A stretch of 64,000 nucleotides of DNA from an uncultured Planctomycetota bacterium (GTDB taxonomy: Bacteria; Planctomycetota; Planctomycetia; Isosphaerales; Isosphaeraceae): positions 1,856,001-1,920,000 of the forward strand of contig CAWGMQ010000005.1 in the NCBI GenBank assembly GCA_963823665.1, written 5' to 3'. The stretch's first letter is position 1. Each line of letters begins with the position of its first letter. The notes beneath the pieces are model-generated. The model was not told the origin of the DNA. It made no database searches and saw only the letters and a list, made by a program, of their open reading frames with translations. A program made the position numbers and the translations under genes. Shown here piece after piece: positions 39,908-53,115 of the stretch.

Positions 39908-40552
39908 TTGTTGCCCGAGATACCGACCGAGCTGCTGGAAGCCAAGAGTACACTGCGCCGCGCGGCATACGATGCCCGCAATGCACAGAAGAACAAGGAC
40001 CGCGTGAGTGAAGCCGCGGTTGCCACGATGATGAAGCTGCCGGAATATGAGGCGGCCAAGACGGCCTTATGGTATATCGACTGCCGGTCCGAGCTACGTA
40101 CGCGGCATGCGCTTCCGACCGCGCTCGAGAGCGACAAGAAGATCGTCGTTCCCTATTGCACACTGGACGACTTCGGCGCGAACAAGCTGGGCCTCTGGTG
40201 GCTCAAGAGCATGGACGAGTTGACAGTTGGCAAGTGGAACATTCTGGAGCCGCCTCGAGACCGATGGGAAGAACCCGAAAGGTCGATTCAGGCTGAAGAG
40301 CTTGACATCGTGATCGTACCCGGCGTGGGCTTCAACCGCCGCGGGGGTCGGATGGGCAACGGCCAGGGTTACTACGACCGGTTACTGCTTCGCGTGCGGC
40401 CGGATTGTCCGCTTGTTGCTCTCTGTTATGAAAGCCAGTTGTTCGACAATCTGATTGTCGGCCCGCATGATGTCTTCATGGACAAAGTGGTGACCGAAAA
40501 GGCGACATACGACGGCCAGGGTCGAGCGCAAGACTGGCGAAGCGATTCTTGA
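39908..40552 (+). CDS. ygfA: 5-formyltetrahydrofolate cyclo-ligase
   Basis: K..LRR, ILEP, DIVIVPGVGF...GGRMGNGQGYYDR, HDVFMD.VVTE. Confidence 0.92.
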   Translation: MLPEIPTELLEAKSTLRRAAYDARNAQKNKDRVSEAAVATMMKLPEYEAAKTALWYIDCRSELRTRHALPTALESDKKIVVPYCTLDDFGANKLGLWWLKSMDELTVGKWNILEPPRDRWEEPERSIQAEELDIVIVPGVGFNRRGGRMGNGQGYYDRLLLRVRPDCPLVALCYESQLFDNLIVGPHDVFMDKVVTEKATYDGQGRAQDWRSDS

Positions 40553-40567
40553 GTACCAGGTTAGCCC

Positions 40568-41500
40568 ATGCCCGCCGTGATCGATGACACCTATGCCGAG
40601 GCCTTTCGCAGCATTTATGTTGAGTTCCTGATCACGGCTTGCAGTCGACGATGGGTCGAGCATGCCGTGGCGGCTGCGACCGGAAATGCCTCGAGCACCA
40701 TCATGTGTGATTGCGAGGCCGGGGTCGATCGATATGTCGGCCCCCAGGGGGATGAATCATTCGCTACTCCGGATGGCCGCCCGGGTGCGATTGTGCAACT
40801 GCACGTTCCGCGATTCCGGAAGGACCGTGTGCCGGCTCTGGAACGATCGGCTCTGGTCCGGATTTGCCAGAACGTGCTGACCTGCCCGACGACTGCGTGC
40901 TTCAATCTCATCGACTCGCCAGAATACTTTCACATGGGTCGCAAGGTCGCCTATTTCGGGGATGGGTTTCAGAAGCGTATCGAGCGATTCGGTCGCAAGA
41001 TGTGGTGGGTGCCCACACTCGGCGGCGAATTCATCCTCGACCGGCGGCTGGGCTACCTAGACGGACTCATGGGCGGCAATCTGTGGTACATGGGCGAGAC
41101 TGAAGATGCAGCATTGGCTGCCGCTGAGGCGGGTGAAGCGGCGGTGCGCGATTGTCCGGGTGTGATCATGCCTTTTCCTGGTGGTATCGCCGGGAGCGGG
41201 TCGAAGGCGGGCAGCAAATACTCGTTTGCGGTTGCGAGCACTTATGAGAAGTTTTGCCCGAAGCTGGCGGATGACCCGGCGGCCAAGACGGATTTGCCGC
41301 CGAATGTGGGCTCGGTGATGGAGATCATTATCAACGGCCGCGATTTGAGTTCGATCAGTCGTGCCACGCAAGCAGCGATCAAAGCCTCTGTGAACACGCC
41401 TGGTCTGCTCCGGATCTCGGCGGGGAACTATGGCGGGCGGCTGGGGAAGAGTTTTGTTTATCTTCATCCGGAAAAGCAGACTCTGGCTCCCGGATCGTAA
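40568..41500 (+). CDS. fhcD: formylmethanofuran:tetrahydromethanopterin N-formyltransferase
   Basis: IDDTYAEAF, CDCEAG.D, TPDGRPG, QNVLTCPTTA, GGN, PFPGGI..SGSK, EIIING, ISAGNYGG.LG. Confidence 0.93.
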   Translation: MPAVIDDTYAEAFRSIYVEFLITACSRRWVEHAVAAATGNASSTIMCDCEAGVDRYVGPQGDESFATPDGRPGAIVQLHVPRFRKDRVPALERSALVRICQNVLTCPTTACFNLIDSPEYFHMGRKVAYFGDGFQKRIERFGRKMWWVPTLGGEFILDRRLGYLDGLMGGNLWYMGETEDAALAAAEAGEAAVRDCPGVIMPFPGGIAGSGSKAGSKYSFAVASTYEKFCPKLADDPAAKTDLPPNVGSVMEIIINGRDLSSISRATQAAIKASVNTPGLLRISAGNYGGRLGKSFVYLHPEKQTLAPGS

Positions 41501-42672: not shown

Positions 42673-44220
42673 ATGAACTACCATCCCAAGTGCATGTTCG
42701 CTGCCGGCTTTACCCTTATCTCCGCGTTGCTGCTCTCGATGCACGCCCACGCCGCGGATAACGAATACAAGCCCTTCGAGGGAGCCAAAAGTACCTGGCA
42801 TGACGGATTCGAGCGGTACGATTACGTGATGGACACAGAAACGCTGGAAATTCAGCCGTTCGAGCGCCCGGCGGACGAGAAGTTCGGGATCAAGGATCCG
42901 CCGCGGGGCAAGCGGCGGTGCGTTGTGATCGTGCCGCGGAAGGCTGCAGCGGGCAACCCCTGGTCATGGCGCGGATGTTACTGGGACCATCAGCCGCAGA
43001 CCGAGGTTGAGCTGCTCAAGCGTGGGTTTCACGTCGCGTATATCTCGGCCAACGCGGGCTTGAGGCCGGATAAGACATGGGACGCCTGGTACGCGTTCTT
43101 GACCGAGAAACACGGGCTGTCCAGGAAGCCGGCGTTTGTGGGAATGAGCCGTGGCGGCGAATACTCCTATACATGGGCCACCGCGAATCCCACGAAAGTT
43201 TCGAGCATCTATGCCGATAATCCCGGGGTGAATTCCGAAGTCCTCAAAAAGCTCGCCGACCTCGCGGCCGCCGACGTGCCCGTGCTGCACGTCTGCGGTA
43301 GCATTGATCCCCTGCTGGGGCGAGTTTCGACTGCGATCGAGAACATCTATCAGCAATTCGGCGGCCGGATCTCGGTGATGATCAAGGAGGGCGCAGGGCA
43401 TCATCCGCATAGCCTGCGCGACGCCAAGCCAATCGCGGACTTCATCTCGCAACAGGTTCAGCCAGCCGGTACCAATCCGCCTCCGTATCTGAGCGGCAGG
43501 ATCACACATTCGTCGATCTACGGCCGGCAAAACATCTATCGTTACGCGCCGAGCGAAGGGATCTACATCACCTGCCGGGGGCCCTGGTTCAGCCCAAGCT
43601 TCGATCGCTACTCATTTGGAATGACGGGCGTGGAGGGTTCGATCGGTGTCGTCGTTCCGAAGACGATCGCTGCCGGGAAGCCATGGGTTTTCCGGGTCGA
43701 TCATGTGAGTGCTGATGCTACGGTCGACCTGGCACTGCTCGAACACGGGTTTCATATTGTGACGGGGCCCGTGCCTTATAACGCAGACGGGCCGTCGCTC
43801 AAGAGCTGGAATGCGGTTTACGAGTTGCTCACCAAGCATGGGTTTTCAAAAAAGCCCGTGCTCGAAGGAGCCGGCGGCGCAGCGGGAGAGGCCTATGCTT
43901 GGGCCATCGCGAATCCGGACAAGGTCTCGTGCATTTACGGCGAAAACCCCGTACTGCGCTGCACGATGACGAAAGCACAACCGCTCGACAACCTCGCTGC
44001 ACTCGCCAGGGCCGGCATTCCCGTGCTGCATGTATGCGGCAGTCTGGATCCGATGCTCGGGAGCCAAACGCGCGAAGCGGAGAAACGCTACAAGGAACTC
44101 GGCGGGGCGATGACCGTGATTGTGCAAGACGGCGAGGGACATTACCCGACGGCACCCAGGGATCTCAAGCCCGTGATCGATTTCATCGTCGCGAAACAAG
44201 GCCCCACAAACGTGAATTGA
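42673..44220 (+). CDS. secreted protein with two tandem alpha/beta-hydrolase-like domains
   Basis: Signal peptide ending AHA; duplicated PW..R...ELL..GFH / W..AN P.KVS.IY..NP / PVLHVCGS.DP / G.GH.P blocks; GMSRGG in domain 1. Confidence 0.75.
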   Translation: MNYHPKCMFAAGFTLISALLLSMHAHAADNEYKPFEGAKSTWHDGFERYDYVMDTETLEIQPFERPADEKFGIKDPPRGKRRCVVIVPRKAAAGNPWSWRGCYWDHQPQTEVELLKRGFHVAYISANAGLRPDKTWDAWYAFLTEKHGLSRKPAFVGMSRGGEYSYTWATANPTKVSSIYADNPGVNSEVLKKLADLAAADVPVLHVCGSIDPLLGRVSTAIENIYQQFGGRISVMIKEGAGHHPHSLRDAKPIADFISQQVQPAGTNPPPYLSGRITHSSIYGRQNIYRYAPSEGIYITCRGPWFSPSFDRYSFGMTGVEGSIGVVVPKTIAAGKPWVFRVDHVSADATVDLALLEHGFHIVTGPVPYNADGPSLKSWNAVYELLTKHGFSKKPVLEGAGGAAGEAYAWAIANPDKVSCIYGENPVLRCTMTKAQPLDNLAALARAGIPVLHVCGSLDPMLGSQTREAEKRYKELGGAMTVIVQDGEGHYPTAPRDLKPVIDFIVAKQGPTNVN

Positions 44221-44240: not shown

Positions 44241-44393
44241 TCATGGAGAGTCGCTTTGTGTTGGTTGGTCCCATCGTAGCGGCTGCTGCTTTGGGGCCTC
44301 GAACCAGGCGCGGGACCGCGGCCATGCGAACCAGATGGTGACGAACCCACCCATCATGAGCGTGACCGCGACGACGATGATGTTGACAGCCAT
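44241..44393 (-). CDS. 50-aa single-TM protein at the end of the oxidase operon (not in ORF track)
   Basis: MAVNIIVVAVTLMMGGFVTIWFAWPRSRAWFEAPKQQPLRWDQPTQSDSP; starts 7 nt after the oxidase stop, GGGGAG RBS. Confidence 0.7.
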   Translation of the reverse strand: MAVNIIVVAVTLMMGGFVTIWFAWPRSRAWFEAPKQQPLRWDQPTQSDSP

Positions 44394-44400
44394 CTGAGAT

Positions 44401-47025
44401 CTACTCCCCTGCTCTGCCGTAGAACGACCGGACGTAGCGGGCCAGCAACTCGCGCTGTGCAGGCGCGAGCTTCGGCTCCCAGCGCGGCATGGCGGTGCCC
44501 CGGACTCCGGACGTCAACGCGGTGATCGCGTATTCGGTCGTCGGTTGTACCTCGTGGAAATTGGTGGGAGGCGGCGACAGCATTCGTGCGCCGGGGCCAT
44601 CCCCTTTGCCGGCAGGGCCGTGGCAGACCACACACTCTTTGGCGTACAGCTCCCGGACGGTCTGGCGCTCGGGGCCAGCGAGCTCTGGGGGCGGCGCGGG
44701 CGGCGCGATCGTTTGCAGGTACGCGACGAGCCCGCGGAGGTCACCGGTGCTCAGATCATTCCAGGCGGGCATCGACGATCCCGAGACTCCGTTCCACATG
44801 ACCTCGCTCAGATGTTTCTCTGAGATTCGAGCGGCCGTCAGGTTGCGAGGTGCAGGCGTCAGGGCAAGCGCCGCGGGGCCGTCTGCCAGACCCTTCGCGC
44901 CGTGGCAGCCGATGCAATGGCGGGCAAAGACCTCCGCCCCTCTGCGGGCAAATCGCTCGGCCTCGCCGGGGGCCAGCGGTGTTTCCCAGTGCGGGGCCGC
45001 ACCGGGTGTTCGGGGGATGGCGCAGTCGCAGAACATTCCGTTACGGCGCTCCTCGTCGGGGTTTTGACCCGCTGCTAGCGGGGCTGGCGAAGCGAGGCCG
45101 GCGAGGCGGGCATCTCGTCCCAGCGATTGAAGGTAGCTTACCAGCTCGATCGCCTCGGGCCGTGGCCGTGTGGGCGAGCCGTCGAAGAGCCAGGGATAGC
45201 CGGGCATGACGGAGTCGGGAACGACATGCCGCGGGTTCCAGAGGTGAGCAAGCTGCCAATCGTTTGACTTCCGCTCGCCCTCGCGGGCGAGGTCCGGGCC
45301 GATGCGCCGGGTTCCCCACATCTGGGGGGCGTCGCCCGCGCTTTCCCACGCCTGGCTGGCCGGACCGAACCGGCGTACGTCGTCCTCGGTGAAACGGACC
45401 AACTGTGAGTGGCATGTCATACAACCTTCTCGGGCGTAGACCAAGCGGCCTCGCCGTTCGCTTGCCGAAGGGACAGACCCTTCGGCGGGTTTCGTCAGGG
45501 CGATCTGGTTGTCGAGCGTGCGGTTGGGCCACATACCGAGTACGACGAACGACAAGACAAAGAGCCCGAATCCGGCGCCGGCGGTGAGTACGTAGGCGTG
45601 CTTCAGCCAGCGAAATCCGGCGACCTCCGCTTCGGCGTCGTCTTGTTCGAGTGCCTCGGTGGTCGACGCAGGGGCGACGACTGCACCGGTCGTCAGCGTT
45701 GCCACGACGGAGATGAACCCGCCGAAGAGCACAACGCCCGATGCGGTACGGATCCACCAGAACGGTGCGGACGCACGCACGGATTCCATCCACGGCAGAT
45801 CGCCCTGCCAGAGCTGGCCCTGCACGAGCCCGGCGGCGGTCAAGTCAAACACCATCGCGGAAAGCCCCAGGGCCAGCAGCCAGAACGACCAGTTCGCCGC
45901 CCTGGCGTTGTAGCGGCAGCCTGGTGTCATTCGCCAGGCGTGCAGCATGCCTCCCAGGGCCGTGAATGAGGCGAACCCGATCATGGCGAGGTGGGAGTGG
46001 CCGATCACCCAGTCGGAGAAATGGACGAATCGATTGATCGGCATGATCGCCTGCGCCGAGCCTTGCAGGCTGACGATCAGGTAGACGACCGTGCCGGTCC
46101 AGACGTAGCGCAGCGGTGTATCGGCGGCGGCGATGGCCGAGCGGTTCCGGAGCGACAGAAGCAAGTTGGTGACGACCAGCGCCACGTCGGCTCCCAGGTA
46201 GACGGAAGCCACGATCGCTCCGCGCTGGGCCTCCATCGGGATCGATGAAAAGACGTAGTGGTGGGTGCCGTTGAGCGGGTAGATCAGGAATAACAGCCAG
46301 AACCCGATCATGGACAGGAAGTGGCTAAAGATCGGCTGGCGGGAAACGGCGGGGATCACCGCATAGGCGACCGCGAGCGCCAGCGGCGTGACAAACAAAC
46401 CCACGGCATCGTGTATCCACAGCCCGCTGAACGTCGCCCCTTGTGCCCCGGGAAGGTATTCGGGCACGACATTTCCAACGGGATAGGCGAGCAGAGTGAA
46501 CGTCAAGCCGCCGAGGATGTACCACGCGGAGACGTAGAGGCTCTTGACCCTGGCGCGGAGTAGCGGCCACACGAACTGAACGATCGCGAGGATCATTCCG
46601 AGTGTTGCCGCACCGTCGACCAAGGGCGGGAACTCAGCCCATTCGAGCGGCTGGCTCACTCCTGCTTGAACGAGAGCCCAACCCGGTAGAACAAGCAGAC
46701 CGTTCCAGACGGCGAAGAGCAACCAGCCAAGCCGCGCGCTCGTGACAGGGCGGTTGGCAAGCCTCGGGACGACGTAATACAGAAATGACAGAAACGCGTT
46801 GCCCAGCCAGCCGAAGAAGATGCCTTGTGTGTGGGCGAAGCGGATCCGCCCCCACGAGAGCCAGGCGACATCGCCGTGAGACTCAGGCACGTTCAGCCTG
46901 ATTGACATCAGTAACCCGAGAATGACGACGTAAAGCACCGAAGCCAGCGCGGCATAACCATGCCAGCGGATCAGAAGGGCGATTGCCGGGTCGTGAGGAG
47001 TGTGCTGTTCGCGGGTAGAGGCCAT
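44401..47025 (-). CDS. ccoN: cbb3-type (C-family) haem-copper oxidase: fused CcoN + CcoO + two extra cytochrome c domains
   Basis: RFAHT, WIHDAVG, YPLNGTHH, IGHSH ligand motifs; CcoO EGCMTCHSQ.VR, WGTRRIGPDLAR, SVMPGYPWL; further CIGCH and CVVCH with distal Met (MP). Confidence 0.88.
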   Translation of the reverse strand: MASTREQHTPHDPAIALLIRWHGYAALASVLYVVILGLLMSIRLNVPESHGDVAWLSWGRIRFAHTQGIFFGWLGNAFLSFLYYVVPRLANRPVTSARLGWLLFAVWNGLLVLPGWALVQAGVSQPLEWAEFPPLVDGAATLGMILAIVQFVWPLLRARVKSLYVSAWYILGGLTFTLLAYPVGNVVPEYLPGAQGATFSGLWIHDAVGLFVTPLALAVAYAVIPAVSRQPIFSHFLSMIGFWLLFLIYPLNGTHHYVFSSIPMEAQRGAIVASVYLGADVALVVTNLLLSLRNRSAIAAADTPLRYVWTGTVVYLIVSLQGSAQAIMPINRFVHFSDWVIGHSHLAMIGFASFTALGGMLHAWRMTPGCRYNARAANWSFWLLALGLSAMVFDLTAAGLVQGQLWQGDLPWMESVRASAPFWWIRTASGVVLFGGFISVVATLTTGAVVAPASTTEALEQDDAEAEVAGFRWLKHAYVLTAGAGFGLFVLSFVVLGMWPNRTLDNQIALTKPAEGSVPSASERRGRLVYAREGCMTCHSQLVRFTEDDVRRFGPASQAWESAGDAPQMWGTRRIGPDLAREGERKSNDWQLAHLWNPRHVVPDSVMPGYPWLFDGSPTRPRPEAIELVSYLQSLGRDARLAGLASPAPLAAGQNPDEERRNGMFCDCAIPRTPGAAPHWETPLAPGEAERFARRGAEVFARHCIGCHGAKGLADGPAALALTPAPRNLTAARISEKHLSEVMWNGVSGSSMPAWNDLSTGDLRGLVAYLQTIAPPAPPPELAGPERQTVRELYAKECVVCHGPAGKGDGPGARMLSPPPTNFHEVQPTTEYAITALTSGVRGTAMPRWEPKLAPAQRELLARYVRSFYGRAGE

Positions 47026-47078
47026 TTTGTTTTCGCGTCATCCTCGTGAAGGAAATCATCTGCAGTGCGGGAGGGGTG

Positions 47079-47507
47079 TCAGGGTGCCGGCGGCTGGGCA
47101 GCGAGTAGATATTCCACCACCTTCACCTCGTTTTCGGGGGTGACGGGCGCGCCATAAACGGCCACCATCTTGTGGACGATCTCAGCCCATTTCTCGCGGC
47201 GGAATGGTGGCTGGCCGAAGGGGAGCTGGGCCGAGTGGCAGATCAAGCAAGACGTCTGGAATTCCTCTCGGTGCGGCCCTTGGGGGATCTCGAAATCCCA
47301 GGCCGGCGTTGCCGTGACGGTGGACGTTTCGACAATCTGACTGTCGGAACGGCCGGCCACGGACCAGGAGTCTCTGGTCCCGAAGTAGGCGATGGCGGAG
47401 GCCGCCGAAATCAGGATGAGAGCCAGGATGATGCCGAAGCGCTGGCGGCGGGCGGCATCGGGGCTGGCGGCGGGCATCAGGTGCTCGGGCAATGGCTCAG
47501 ACGACAT
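47079..47507 (-). CDS. sorB: SorB-like monohaem cytochrome c with N-terminal TM anchor
   Basis: CLICHS...QP......W...V.KM...YGAP; overlaps the 3' end of sorA. Confidence 0.8.
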   Translation of the reverse strand: MSSEPLPEHLMPAASPDAARRQRFGIILALILISAASAIAYFGTRDSWSVAGRSDSQIVETSTVTATPAWDFEIPQGPHREEFQTSCLICHSAQLPFGQPPFRREKWAEIVHKMVAVYGAPVTPENEVKVVEYLLAAQPPAP

Positions 47508-48693
47508 GGATGGACATTTCCTCGACGACATTTCGCATGTACCCGCCGCGGTTCCAGCCTTCGTTCGAGGGCTGAACCTGGCCATCGCCGGCTGTGGCGC
47601 GGCAGCGAAGCCGGCATTCGCCGCGCACGGATGGAACCCAGCGGTGGTGCCAGCGGCGGAACGAGAATCGACCCATGTCAGGGCCCAGGGCCGTTTGCGT
47701 CCAGCTTGTGCCGCCATTGGTCGAAACCTCGACGCTGCGGATGCCGCTGCCGCCGTCAAAGGCGATTCCATCCAGGTCGATGGGCCGGCCCAGCGGCAGT
47801 CTGGCATCGGAGTCGGGCGTGGTGATGAACGATCGAACGTTCATGCGATGAATGGGAACGACCTGCTGGGCGAGCTGGTCTGGAGTTTCCACTCCGTTGG
47901 GTGTTGGCGGGATCTTGTAAGCCTTGGCCATCCAGTAACCATCGTATGGCTGCGCCAGGACGGTGATTTTGTGGAGCATTTTGACCCAATAGGTGGCATA
48001 CCATCCGGGGACAACCAGGCGGGCTGGGAAACCATTCAAGCGTGGCAGGGGCTCGCCGTTCGCCGAGTGGGCCACGATGACTTCAGGCTGAAGTGCGCGA
48101 TCGATATCGAGTGCCTTGACAAAATCGGGCACCGAGGCGAGTGGGCCCTGGTCGAGCCCATCGAACGTTACCTGGGCGGCGTCTTTTCGGAGGCCGGCCG
48201 CGCGGAGCACTTTTCCAAGCGAGACTCCGGCCCAGCGAGCGTTGCCCATGGCTCCGTTCCGCCATTGCGCACCGGGGACTCTGGGAGTGAAGAGACTGCG
48301 CGAGTTTCCGGAGCACTGATTGACGGCCACGACTTCGTCGTTGCCGAGCTTGCGAAGATCGTCCATGGACAATTCAAGCGGCCGGTCAACGGCGCCGTCG
48401 ACGCGGAGCCGCCACGTTTTGATATCCACGTCGAGTGGCAGCGCCTGGAGGTGCCAGCGAACGTAGAATGCTTCCATCGGCGTCAGGTCGTGACGGAAAT
48501 AGCGCCAGGGTGTCTCCAGACATGGCGGCCGGTCGTTCACGAGGCGCATGGCTGTCTTGCCGGGGAATCGCGCAAGTGGACCGTCGGTGTCGGTTGCAGG
48601 GGGATTTTCCCGGGTGCGCTGGCAGCCGATGGGCAGGAGCCCCGTTCCGGCCATGGCGGCGAGCCGCAACCATTCGCGGCGGGGTATTTGCAT
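47497..48693 (-). CDS. sorA: Tat-exported molybdopterin sulfite dehydrogenase (sulfite oxidase family)
   Basis: PRREWL Tat leader, LETP, FYVRWH, QCSGNSR (Mo-ligating Cys), GAMGNARWAG, NGFPARLVVPGWYATYWVK, WN..GY.RN. Confidence 0.88.
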   Translation of the reverse strand: MQIPRREWLRLAAMAGTGLLPIGCQRTRENPPATDTDGPLARFPGKTAMRLVNDRPPCLETPWRYFRHDLTPMEAFYVRWHLQALPLDVDIKTWRLRVDGAVDRPLELSMDDLRKLGNDEVVAVNQCSGNSRSLFTPRVPGAQWRNGAMGNARWAGVSLGKVLRAAGLRKDAAQVTFDGLDQGPLASVPDFVKALDIDRALQPEVIVAHSANGEPLPRLNGFPARLVVPGWYATYWVKMLHKITVLAQPYDGYWMAKAYKIPPTPNGVETPDQLAQQVVPIHRMNVRSFITTPDSDARLPLGRPIDLDGIAFDGGSGIRSVEVSTNGGTSWTQTALGPDMGRFSFRRWHHRWVPSVRGECRLRCRATAGDGQVQPSNEGWNRGGYMRNVVEEMSIHVV

Positions 48694-48852
48694 ACAATGA
48701 GGTTCCTCTGAGCTCCGCGCCGGCACGGCCGAGAACAGTGTGGCTGTAGATCCGGTTACTGTAAACTGATCTGGTGAACGAACGCGAATGAAAAAGCAAA
48801 TGTCCACGACCAACAGGGCTGTGGTTCTCGTGCTTGCTGTGTGGGAGGACTC

Positions 48853-50607
<1,755 letters not shown>

Positions 50608-50621
50608 TAGGAGATCTGTCG

Positions 50622-52283
50622 ATGACCGGGCTCGAACGACCGCAGACGGGCGCGCAGCTTCTGGTTCGATGTCTTGAGAGTCAGGGGGTTCCGTTCATCT
50701 TCGGCATCCCGGGCGGGGCCATCTCGCCGATTCTGGAGGCGCTCGCCGATGGCGGGCCGCGGTTCATCACGGTACGGCACGAAACTGCCGGGGCGTTCAT
50801 GGCACAGGCGTACGGACGCTGCACGGGGAGGCCGGGGGTCGTGCTGACGACGTCGGGGCCGGGGCTGATCAACGCAGTCTGCGGCGTTGCCACGGCCCAG
50901 GCCGACCGTGACCCGGTCGTGGCGATCACGGGGCAAGTTCCACGCGGGATGCGGTTCAAGTCGTATCACCAGTATCTCGACACGGTCGGCCTGTTTGCCC
51001 CGATCACCAAATGGAGCGTCGGGGTCGAGGAGCCGGATACCATTCCGGAGGTGCTGGCCAACGCATTTCGACTCGCTGCCAGGCCGCGCCCAGGGGCCGT
51101 CCACGTCAGCGTTCCGTCTGACGTGTCTCGCGCAGCCACCAAGGGCGAGCCCTTGTCGCTGTTTGAGCCTGCGTCGGGCGGCCTGCCCGCGGATGAAGAC
51201 CTCGAACGTGCTGCTCTGCTTCTGCGGTCGGCTCGTCAGCCAGTGCTGCTGCTCGGCGTGGGAGCGGGCGAGGCTGGGGCGACGGCGGCCATCCGACGGC
51301 TGCTAGGGCAGGCTGCACTGCCGGTGGCTTGCACCTTCGAGGGCAACGGTGTCGTCTCGCGCGACCTGGTCAATTGGTTCGCCGGCCGCGTTGGTTACAC
51401 GCACAACCAGCCCGCCGACCGGCTGTTGCAGCAGGCGGATGTCGTCGCGTGCGTCGGCTATGACCTGATCGAGTACGACCCAACGGAGTGGCTGGGGCCG
51501 GCGACATCGGTTATTCACCTGGATGAGATCCCCGCGACGATCGACCGTGCGTACCGGCCGGCGGTCGAGCTGGTCGGTGACCTTGGCCGCACGATCGATG
51601 CCCTTACAAAACGGCTGGGGCAAATCACGGCTATCGAGACTGATTCGCTCCGCGAGGCGCGGCAAGAACTCGCTGTTGATCGGTCGCGGGGGGCGGGTCT
51701 GGGCGGCTGCCCCGTCCATCCGCTGCGGATTTTGCATGATCTGGGGCAGGTTGTTGCCGACGACGTGACGGTTACCTGCGACGTCAGGGCGCACCAGATC
51801 TGGACGGCGCGATACTTTTTCCGGTATTCCCCGCGAACGCTCTTCTTCAGCATGGGGCACCAGACGATGGGCGTCGGCCTGCCCTGGGCAATCGGGGCGG
51901 CTCTGGCGCGCCCGGGCAAGCCGGCTGTTTCCATTTCCGGCGACGGCTCCTTCTTGATGACCTGCATGGAGCTGGAAACCGCCGTGCGGCTGAAGCTGCC
52001 GACTGTGCACCTCGTCTGGCGTGATGGTAGTTATAACCTCGTCGGTTTGCTCGCCCTGAGGGAATACGGGCGTGAGGTGGGGACGCACTTCGGGCCGACT
52101 GATTTCGTGGCGCTGGCCCAATCATTCGGTGCCGCAGGATTCCGCGTGAACGACGCGGATGAGCTGCGGCCAGCACTGGAGCGGGCGCTCGCTCTGGGGT
52201 CACCGGCCGTTATCGAGATCCCGGTTGATTACCGCGACAACTTGCCCCTGGTTCAGCCGATGAAGCTGCGGGCGGTCGACTGA
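50622..52283 (+). CDS. alsS: catabolic acetolactate synthase
   Basis: FGIPGG, RHE, TSGPG, QTMGVGLPWAIGA, GDGSFLM..MELETAVRL..P.VH.VW.D (AlsS/BudB-like); adjacent to budA. Confidence 0.88.
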   Translation: MTGLERPQTGAQLLVRCLESQGVPFIFGIPGGAISPILEALADGGPRFITVRHETAGAFMAQAYGRCTGRPGVVLTTSGPGLINAVCGVATAQADRDPVVAITGQVPRGMRFKSYHQYLDTVGLFAPITKWSVGVEEPDTIPEVLANAFRLAARPRPGAVHVSVPSDVSRAATKGEPLSLFEPASGGLPADEDLERAALLLRSARQPVLLLGVGAGEAGATAAIRRLLGQAALPVACTFEGNGVVSRDLVNWFAGRVGYTHNQPADRLLQQADVVACVGYDLIEYDPTEWLGPATSVIHLDEIPATIDRAYRPAVELVGDLGRTIDALTKRLGQITAIETDSLREARQELAVDRSRGAGLGGCPVHPLRILHDLGQVVADDVTVTCDVRAHQIWTARYFFRYSPRTLFFSMGHQTMGVGLPWAIGAALARPGKPAVSISGDGSFLMTCMELETAVRLKLPTVHLVWRDGSYNLVGLLALREYGREVGTHFGPTDFVALAQSFGAAGFRVNDADELRPALERALALGSPAVIEIPVDYRDNLPLVQPMKLRAVD

Positions 52284-52314
52284 GCCACGACCTGAGTTTC
52301 ACGAGGTCAGCATC

Positions 52315-53115
52315 ATGCCGAGCGAGATCTCTTCCATCCATGCTCTCCATGCCTTGCGCTCCCACCGTCATCGCTCGGCGAGCTCTGACGTGCCGGATGC
52401 AGGCGCACTACACGAGGTCTTTCAGAACTCGACAATCAACGCGCTCCTCGAAGGCGTGTACGACGGGTCGATGACCTACGGCGAGCTGCGCCGGCACGGG
52501 GACTTCGGGCTCGGCACATTTAACGCCTTGGACGGCGAGATGATGGCGGTGGACGGGGATTTCTACCAGATCAAAGCCGACGGCGTTGTTTCCCTCGTCG
52601 CAGATGACCAGCGGACGCCGTTCGCCACTGTTCTGTTCTTCCGGCCCACAATCAGGCAATCGCTTAATGGTCCGCTTGACTATGAGCATTTGCAGACCCG
52701 TTTGGACAGCATGATGGAAGGGCCGAACTTATTCTATGCGGTGCGGATCGACGGCGAGTTTGCGTCGGTGAAGACGCGGAGTATGCCCCGGCAGGCGAAG
52801 CCGTATCCACCACTTGTGGAAGTGGCGAAGACGCAACCGGAGTTTCATCTGAAGGACGTGCGCGGCACGCTGGCGGGGTTCCGATTTCCGGACTTTGCCC
52901 GTGGCCTGAACGTGCCGGGGTTCCATCTCCACTTCTTGACGGAGGACCGACGGGCTGGAGGGCACGTGCTCGATCTCGCGCTTACGCGCGGCGAAGTGGC
53001 GATTGATGCCACGGCACGCTTCCACCTGGAGCTGCCGACTGACTCGGCGTTTCTGCACGCCGCCCTGGGGCAGGATCACGGTGATGAGCTGGACCGGGCT
53101 GAACGGGGGAAGTGA
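52315..53115 (+). CDS. budA: alpha-acetolactate decarboxylase
   Basis: QNSTINALLEGVYDG, HGDFGLGTFNALDGEM, GFHLHFLTEDR..GGHVLD. Confidence 0.95.
   Translation: MPSEISSIHALHALRSHRHRSASSDVPDAGALHEVFQNSTINALLEGVYDGSMTYGELRRHGDFGLGTFNALDGEMMAVDGDFYQIKADGVVSLVADDQRTPFATVLFFRPTIRQSLNGPLDYEHLQTRLDSMMEGPNLFYAVRIDGEFASVKTRSMPRQAKPYPPLVEVAKTQPEFHLKDVRGTLAGFRFPDFARGLNVPGFHLHFLTEDRRAGGHVLDLALTRGEVAIDATARFHLELPTDSAFLHAALGQDHGDELDRAERGK

Follow-up and report, generated by a model that had tools for sequence, protein, structure and literature searches.

The subject of this report is an operon-like run of four genes in a 64,000-nucleotide stretch of DNA (the window) from an uncultured planctomycete of the family Isosphaeraceae (assembly GCA_963823665.1, contig CAWGMQ010000005.1, positions 1,856,001 to 1,920,000). 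Four intact open reading frames occupy 44241-48693 of the window, head to tail on the minus strand, and encode a SorA-like molybdoenzyme, a SorB-like cytochrome c, a cbb3-like haem-copper oxidase and a small membrane peptide (Table 1). Purine-rich, ribosome-binding-like stretches precede all four ATGs; a scan for promoters and terminators gave one promoter-like and two terminator-like sites, which is chance level. Both flanks are on the opposite strand, and the flanking genes are not among the recurring neighbours of related loci. An earlier reading of the letters alone (the original prediction) had described four co-oriented, tightly spaced genes as a candidate self-contained sulfite:O2 module. 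The intact frames, the overlap and the short gaps bear out the layout, while "self-contained" is not strictly right because the genes for Cu delivery, haem and the molybdenum cofactor (Moco) sit elsewhere in the genome (moaA above its cut-off, cytochrome c assembly genes and a ccoI-like ATPase in a second cbb3-like operon).

Table 1. Coordinates of the operon genes and other features in the window
Feature	Coordinates	Strand	Details
sorA-like gene	47497-48693	-	398 aa
sorB-like gene (SorB-like monohaem cytochrome c)	47079-47507	-	142 aa; 11-nt overlap with sorA; C87xxC90H91, M114; N-terminal membrane helix ~24-42
Oxidase fusion gene (divergent C-family, cbb3-like haem-copper oxidase)	44401-47025	-	874 aa; 53 nt past sorB; CcoN + CcoO (~470-640) + dihaem (~690-870)
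Small peptide gene (single-helix membrane peptide)	44241-44393	-	50 aa; 7 nt past oxidase gene; invariant E32-x-P34-K35
CxC in oxidase linker	45022-45030		residues 666-668
Malic enzyme, catabolic acetolactate synthase (AlsS), acetolactate decarboxylase (alsD)	48841-53115	+	transcribed away from sorA
Probable exported protein	42673-44220	+	515 aa; convergent with operon end
5-formyltetrahydrofolate cyclo-ligase family gene, fhcD	39908-41500	+	

Proteins encoded by the operon

The molybdoenzyme carries the Moco (PF00174) and dimerisation (PF03404) domains above the Pfam cut-offs, and its NCBIfam scores are 493.6 bits for SorA against 190.6 for SorT, 163.6 for SoxC and 42.5 for MsrP. Among solved structures it is closest to Starkeya novella SorA (2blf_A, E 2.5e-109); SorT, SoxC and MsrP (YedY) follow at a long distance. 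Counted from the alignment with 2blf_A, R55, H57, C104, R109 and Y236 of S. novella SorA correspond to R79, H81, C127, R132 and Y259 here; C104 is the Mo-ligand cysteine and the other four are sulfite-site residues. R55 is covered in PMC3561395. Among 56 intact operon copies, with frameshifted, cut and duplicate copies excluded, H81, C127, R132 and Y259 are kept in all and R79 in 55. The sulfite-dehydrogenase motifs listed in the original prediction (FYVRWH, CSGNSR and GWYATY) are all present, but the catalytic tyrosine is Y259 within KAYKIP and not the tyrosine of GWYATY. The MsrP-like identity raised there as an alternative was rejected on the MsrP score (cut-off of NF003767, 207 bits) and the presence of the dimerisation domain. 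The twin-arginine (Tat) signal holds up, with the motif RREWL here and a twin-arginine motif in 54 of the 56 copies, and a lipobox-like cysteine follows the signal in 49 of 56 (Cys24 here) and in none of four stand-alone proteobacterial SorAs. Read as a pattern, the Tat motif and lipobox-like cysteine suggest that SorA is probably a Tat lipoprotein anchored via Cys24.

The SorB-like protein matches NCBIfam SorB at 51.9 bits and 2blf_B at E 2.1e-5. Its haem ligands C87, C90, H91 and M114 are invariant in 52/52 SorB-like proteins and its N-terminal hydrophobic helix peaks at a hydropathy of 2.38, in agreement with the membrane-anchored SorB-type cytochrome that had been proposed. In many acidobacterial copies a lipobox-like cysteine replaces the helix.

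The oxidase combines PF00115, PF02433 (E 2.2e-38) and two PF13442/PF00034 stretches with three CxxCH motifs, as expected for the haem-copper oxidase with three c-haem domains that had been described, and PF02433 identifies the fused second subunit as c-type CcoO instead of CuA. The protein matches 3mk7_A at E 8.3e-36 and is 23-25% identical to solved CcoN chains. An AlphaFold model from 118 sequences (predicted local distance difference test (pLDDT) 86.9, predicted template modelling score (pTM) 0.88), which superseded an initial model from 18 sequences (pLDDT 71.6), aligns with 3mk7_D (VIA) at Z 37.5 and a root-mean-square deviation (rmsd) of 2.1 Å over 442 residues, and the best nitric oxide (NO) reductase match lies below this (Z 33.8, rmsd 2.5, 429 residues). 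Across the 118 aligned oxidases, there is no variation at H65, H205, H255, H256, H343, H345, the helix-VII tyrosine Y249, the glutamates of the Ca site or any of the three CxxCH motifs, nor at M607 and M752; these two methionines and M846 (117/118) are the probable axial haem ligands. Assignment to canonical ccoNOQP was rejected: the scores for TIGR00780/781/782 (ccoN, ccoO, ccoP) are 158.5, 122.5 and 50.3 bits, all under the cut-offs (583 for ccoN), G201 and Q321 depart from the canonical residues, and there is no separate CcoP with membrane helices. A cNOR or qNOR identity was likewise rejected, given Tyr249, cbb3 oxidases as best sequence and fold matches, and Gly209 at what we take to be the position of the FeB glutamate of NO reductases.

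The fusion of N, O and dihaem domains is widespread, with 1349 of 7997 scored proteins reaching E 1e-20 or better, and not fixed, several related loci encoding N and O-dihaem as separate genes. In 81/118 aligned oxidases a CxC motif lies in the linker that joins the CcoO domain to the dihaem domain; it has the form FCDC in planctomycetes and a similar CxCP in Melainabacteria and is absent from most Acidobacteriota. It is a possible disulfide or metal site. Seven CcoN-like representatives (P0136, P0142, P0188, P0206, P0228, P0253 and P0263) have lost haem or CuB ligands and are possibly inactive copies or misalignments; all three CxxCH motifs are retained in P0142 (841 aa).

The 50-residue peptide named in the original prediction is real: a profile from 31 copies places it directly after the oxidase in 73/80 loci, and 6 of the 7 loci without a match end at or near the oxidase. 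It is present in the plasmid copies of both Paraburkholderia fungorum and Acetobacter ascendens, and the E32, P34 and K35 invariance of Table 1 refers to the 31 copies. The peptide is likely a small subunit, and it fitted no known family. Matches to FixQ (PF05545; best E 0.011, 3/31 members, none listed as above the cut-off), to CcoS (E 0.0087, under the cut-off) and to an Atlas FixQ cluster (score 0.84) give a weak lead towards a CcoQ-like identity.

Linkage of the oxidase to sulfur dehydrogenases

A scan of GTDB genomes yielded 426 oxidase loci, and neighbourhoods were scored for the best 80 of these (including two identical copies and two loci from one assembly). In 64 of the best 80, sorA lies no more than 1.5 kb upstream of the oxidase, an arrangement far beyond chance, and sorB is present in 66 (2 at a contig edge), so that the rarity of sorAB neighbours against which the original prediction was to be checked is not borne out there. 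Planctomycetota account for 21 of the sorA-linked loci, Acidobacteriota for 18, Melainabacteria for 16, Pseudomonadota for 2 and others for 3; 4 further records are labelled Cyanobacteriota and group with Melainabacteria. Another 10 of the best 80 have a TsdA-like dihaem gene downstream of the oxidase, in no case together with sorA, and the 4 loci without either partner (L039, L055, L083 and L090) are all cut by contig ends. An extra monohaem cytochrome stands between sorB and the oxidase in 31 of the best 80 and a metallo-β-lactamase (MBL)-rhodanese gene, mostly just before sorA, in 17; the window has neither, and one MBL-rhodanese homologue is found elsewhere in the host genome. Further sulfur genes near these loci are DsrE (in 6), rhodanese and TauE.

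The TsdA-like partners carry the CxRSxNG motif, whose cysteine we take to be the TsdA haem ligand, in 10/10 cases among the best 80 and 10/10 in the even sample described below. The putative thiosulfate dehydrogenase of locus L096 matches Allochromatium vinosum TsdA (4v2k) at E 5.1e-37. On the plasmids of P. fungorum and A. ascendens, a TsdA-like cytochrome lies directly upstream of the oxidase, with the motif cysteine in a CFxxSMNG variant, and both loci also have DsrE, the P. fungorum locus with YeeE/YedE in addition. Besides these two cultured carriers of the TsdA form, Kolteria novifilia Pan216, Agrobacterium burrii and Carideicomes alvinocaridis are cultured carriers of the sorAB form.

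To offset the bias of the best 80 towards close relatives, we also drew even samples of 400 non-centre genomes per phylum, with at most 4 candidates scored per genome. The oxidase was found in 11/400 Acidobacteriota, with a TsdA-like partner in 10 of the 11 and sorAB in none; in 1/400 Pseudomonadota, with sorA, sorB and a cytochrome c; and in 1/400 Planctomycetota, with sorAB. With the centres included, the clade is uncommon (2/401 genomes of Planctomycetota, 12/401 of Acidobacteriota and 2/401 of Pseudomonadota). Among 61 relatives, partly the same genomes, 11 have a SorA match of at least 56% identity, beside the oxidase in all 11; in a twelfth relative only the rear half of the oxidase is present.

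The oxidase tree was built by a quick method from the catalytic domain of 122 rows, leaving out 13 representatives that were fragments or lacked ligands, together with a duplicate, a row truncated at the N terminus and a short one. In this tree the sulfur-linked oxidases form a single clade of 81 rows (Shimodaira-Hasegawa-like approximate likelihood ratio test 100, branch 0.71), in which the copies nearest to that of the window come from Isosphaeraceae and other planctomycetes. A sister planctomycete clade, which includes the host's second cbb3-like operon, has SorA, SorB or TsdA in 0/7 loci. TsdA-linked rows stand at three places in the tree, corresponding to 3 partner changes by parsimony. 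The SorA tree shows the same groups and clusters the operon SorAs with stand-alone proteobacterial SorAs. Pairwise identities of SorA and oxidase at 55 loci are correlated (rho 0.667, against 0.183 for the best of 1000 shuffles), a co-divergence that fits long co-inheritance, although shared descent alone can produce it.

The operon is confirmed as real and conserved, and it is built from known parts. Relatives of the oxidase in four bacterial groups almost always adjoin a sulfite- or thiosulfate-oxidising gene. The idea that a periplasmic Mo-enzyme is wired to its own oxidase gains from the linkage, the co-divergence and the active sites, and needs amending in one respect, the partner not always being SorAB: a TsdA-like protein takes its place in 10 of the best 80 loci and in 10/11 loci of the even Acidobacteriota sample. 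Because of this replacement, and because the sister clade and stand-alone sorAB loci are unpaired, the oxidase is not tied to SorAB alone; our results support an oxidase that is reserved for the oxidation of sulfur oxyanions in the periplasm and whose donor can be exchanged.

Proposed electron path and rival explanations

Judging from sequence, we consider it fairly probable that the four genes encode a membrane-tethered sulfite:O2 chain whereby electrons pass from SorA to SorB, on to the operon's own fused cbb3-like oxidase and to O2. In our model, SorA would take two electrons from periplasmic sulfite at its Mo centre, forming sulfate, and hand them to the SorB haem (C87/C90/H91/M114), from which they would reach the two C-terminal haems of the oxidase (C704/C707/H708 with M752; C798/C801/H802 with M846). 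They would continue to the CcoO haem (C535/C538/H539 with M607), to haem b (H65/H345) and to the haem b3-CuB-Tyr site (H343; H205, H255, H256; Y249), where O2 would be reduced to water with cytoplasmic protons, separating charge without quinone or bc1. The proposed haem order is based on the order CcoP, CcoO, CcoN given in PMC8267372. Because protons would be released outside and consumed inside, some energy would be conserved even without pumping. The oxidase clade would serve sulfur-oxyanion dehydrogenases generally, namely SorAB in Planctomycetota, Melainabacteria and some Acidobacteriota and Pseudomonadota, and TsdA-like proteins in others.

Complex modelling was among the checks proposed in the original prediction. 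SorB (residues 16-140) with the oxidase (13-868) reached an interface score (ipSAE) of 0.52 (runs 0.52, 0.31 and 0.54), against 0.00 for the best of three controls, with contact agreement between runs of at least 64% and partner pLDDT of at least 67. In the calibration, the ipSAE mark was reached by 116/157 solved complexes and 2/215 mismatches; among those that reached it, scores at 0.60 or under belong to only 18 of the solved complexes but to both mismatches. Part of the score may stem from a resemblance to cytochrome-oxidase complexes already solved. The model lends weak support to a SorB-oxidase contact.

More tentatively, and with rather more doubt than belief, the oxidase clade might be seen as a plug-in module that forms a stable membrane-anchored sulfite:O2 or thiosulfate:O2 complex with swappable donors, a rebuilt proton entry and an energy gain at low oxygen. 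H235 of the oxidase and the glutamate of the 50-residue peptide would then make up the proton entry in place of the CcoP helices, and the module would give heterotrophic Planctomycetota, Acidobacteriota and Melainabacteria of soil and fresh water a so far unrecognised route to energy from sulfur. That the peptide glutamate replaces the CcoP glutamate is speculation that builds on earlier work on CcoP.

Several observations weigh against the sulfite:O2 chain, besides shared descent as a source of the co-divergence and the bias of the best-80 set to close relatives. SorB falls under its NCBIfam cut-off (51.9 against 93), and SorA under that of NF052245 (600 bits), as do 3/3 other operon SorAs tested (504-514), while 2/2 stand-alone proteobacterial SorAs pass (648, 676); the protein is therefore SorA-like and not a curated SorA. 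The oxidase adjoins none of 12 stand-alone planctomycete sorAB loci (one cut right after sorB), which were examined out of 14 other planctomycete SorA matches (45-53%), and none of four proteobacterial plasmid sorAB loci. At L141, one oxidase locus of the even Acidobacteriota sample, a sulfur dehydrogenase is missing and the dihaem cytochrome present is an unrelated one. The host genome (16.5 Mb, 92% complete) gave no match to soxB or TsdA in family searches, and it encodes an A-family oxidase and the second cbb3-like operon, so that other oxidases could accept SorB electrons. Finally, the membrane helices of CcoP are absent from the oxidase, which also departs from Pseudomonas stutzeri CcoN at W203 (G201 here), N208 (D206), H243 (G241) and E323 (Q321); because of these differences, its proton uptake and O2 affinity may differ from those of the P. 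stutzeri enzyme.

The changes in the oxidase bear on a first alternative, in which the same electron path is a detoxifying sink that clears the periplasm of sulfite (and of traces of O2), while an altered channel for proton uptake leaves hardly any energy gain or none. T215, Y223, S240, H243, Y317 and N289 of P. stutzeri, together with an entry glutamate in CcoP, are what we take to be its single proton channel. The equivalents of W203, H243 and E323 are replaced, that of H243 being Gly, Ala or Thr in 118/118 aligned oxidases, and the entry helices are missing; against this, T213, Y221, S238, N287, Y315 and Y249 remain, and the same helix has gained an invariant histidine, H235, close to its cytoplasmic end. 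A sink would suit hosts that are not known sulfur lithotrophs; in the window genome it would also fit the lack of a soxB match and the presence of other oxidases for ordinary respiration, and detoxification is the usual role ascribed to SorAB-type enzymes in heterotrophs (PMC3561395). On the other hand, a soluble acceptor would be enough for detoxification alone, and the same substitutions occur in sister clades without sulfur genes. The single cbb3 oxidase that has been reported in Nitrospina gracilis likewise has Gly203 (PMC3578206). We regard the sink as unlikely. G201, H235, G241 and Q321 are common to a wider divergent branch that includes the Sinorhizobium meliloti copy discussed in the same paper, and are therefore not marks of sulfur linkage; the mark is the SGLWIHD form. 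The invariance of SGLWIHDA in loci L017-L096 was built into the search pattern, and it was verified independently in 67 protein-search rows, the plasmid loci and the even-sample loci, with one SGLWTHD.

It is quite improbable that the genes are co-regulated neighbours, with the oxidase acting as a general cytochrome c oxidase of high affinity and with a Mo-enzyme that uses another substrate or feeds a common cytochrome pool. The scores of SorA and SorB under their cut-offs, the weak complex score and a donor gene that varies by lineage and is absent in L141 would fit such an arrangement, as would the 31 loci in which an inserted cytochrome argues against a fixed SorB-oxidase contact. Yet each of the two kinds of partner is a sulfur-oxyanion dehydrogenase with c-haems as electron acceptors, the partner type switches at least 3 times on the tree and always within sulfur chemistry, and all tested sulfite-site residues are kept, with MsrP as a distant match. 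NO rather than O2 as the substrate, with sulfite oxidation coupled to NO removal, is most improbable: the low identity to solved CcoN, a fold also close to cNOR (Z 33.8 and 32.3) and the in vitro NO reduction by B- and C-family oxidases (PMC11214002) are outweighed by the best matches to cbb3 oxidases, the residue at the FeB-Glu position and the universal Y249, a tyrosine that marks O2 reductases in the same source.

Known systems and genomic surroundings

Like S. novella SorAB (2BLF), the proposed sulfite:O2 chain pairs a Mo-enzyme and a monohaem cytochrome encoded by adjacent genes, with the sulfite-site equivalents kept; there, sorAB (Snov_3268-3269) lies apart from cbb3 (Snov_4464-4468; PMC3797975), whereas here the oxidase adjoins sorAB and both subunits look membrane-anchored, SorA by its lipobox-like cysteine and SorB by its helix. 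The oxidase shares with P. stutzeri CcoNOQP (3MK7) the fold, the six histidines, the tyrosine, the Ca-site glutamate pair and the CcoO and dihaem domains, but is a single polypeptide of about 25% identity, without CcoP helices and with W203G, N208D, H243G and E323Q, and is encoded with sulfur dehydrogenases instead of ccoGHIS. By its published description, the fused CcoNOP of N. gracilis (954 aa; PMC3578206) has the same N-O-P fusion, one plus two c-haems and Gly at 203, and differs in His202 and Tyr208, where Ser200 and Asp206 are found here; the related S. meliloti type is on a branch separate from the window oxidase, at 33% identity. Sulfite electrons also reach terminal oxidases via c-type cytochromes in Thermus thermophilus (SOR, c550, c552 and ba3/caa3; PMC3561395) and Campylobacter jejuni (SorAB and cytochrome c; PMC4178425), but through soluble shuttles and general oxidases, and the parts of these papers at hand describe no dedicated co-encoded oxidase.

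Sulfite respiration and the N-O-P fusion (PMC3578206) are already published. We found no description of a sorAB-oxidase operon in the literature covered, and subscription journals and supplements (including those of bioRxiv) could contain one; the original prediction, too, had been aware of no characterised operon so arranged. In N. gracilis, ccoNOP (NITGRv1_270015) and sorAB (NITGRv1_140025-26) belong to different locus-tag series (PMC3578206), and PMC10839748 repeats these facts and, in its accessible portion, draws no connection. The sorAB-like pairs and ccoNO of peatland Acidobacteria are likewise in different locus-tag series (10.1101/197269; PMC6018796). The portion of PMC11214002 seen names no such C subfamily, and those of PMC4013037, PMC10732223, PMC6431628, PMC12345210 and 10.1101/2021.10.15.464467 contain nothing on the operon. 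If our model is right, the chain would be shorter than any other known kind of sulfur respiration, with donor and oxidase encoded in one operon and with Sox, quinone and bc1 all dispensed with. Such a chain would assign a function to a cbb3-like branch now annotated as ordinary, explain the unusual active-site and channel residues that these oxidases keep and extend sulfur oxidation to lineages now counted as simple heterotrophs, its global weight being likely limited because the oxidase clade is uncommon.

Some further observations concern the loci compared above and the surroundings of the operon. The second, more distant cbb3-like operon of the host (L100:7391-14878, contig C4) comprises a dihaem cytochrome, an unknown membrane protein, ccoN, ccoO, a P-type ATPase and DsbD_2. 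It belongs to a planctomycete clade whose CuB helix carries GGLFIHD. The ccoN of this operon and two A-family oxidase genes appear frameshifted in the host assembly. The oxidase of L141 (L141:3158-10017), the single clade member lacking a sulfur dehydrogenase, is preceded by isochorismatase-like, amidohydrolase and dihaem cytochrome genes, and DoxX comes after it. Stand-alone sorAB occurs in 8 loci (L122-L129) from low-GC planctomycete genomes of one family (f40) of 3.3-4.2 Mb. In the window, the malic enzyme, AlsS and acetolactate decarboxylase on the sorA side, all above their NCBIfam cut-offs, form an acetoin-type low-oxygen module, and a same-genus genome has malic enzyme and alsD-like genes at the corresponding place. 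The probable exported protein at the other side has no Pfam match at E 0.01, and beyond it lie the cyclo-ligase family gene and the formylmethanofuran-tetrahydromethanopterin formyltransferase gene (fhcD), typical of planctomycete C1 metabolism.

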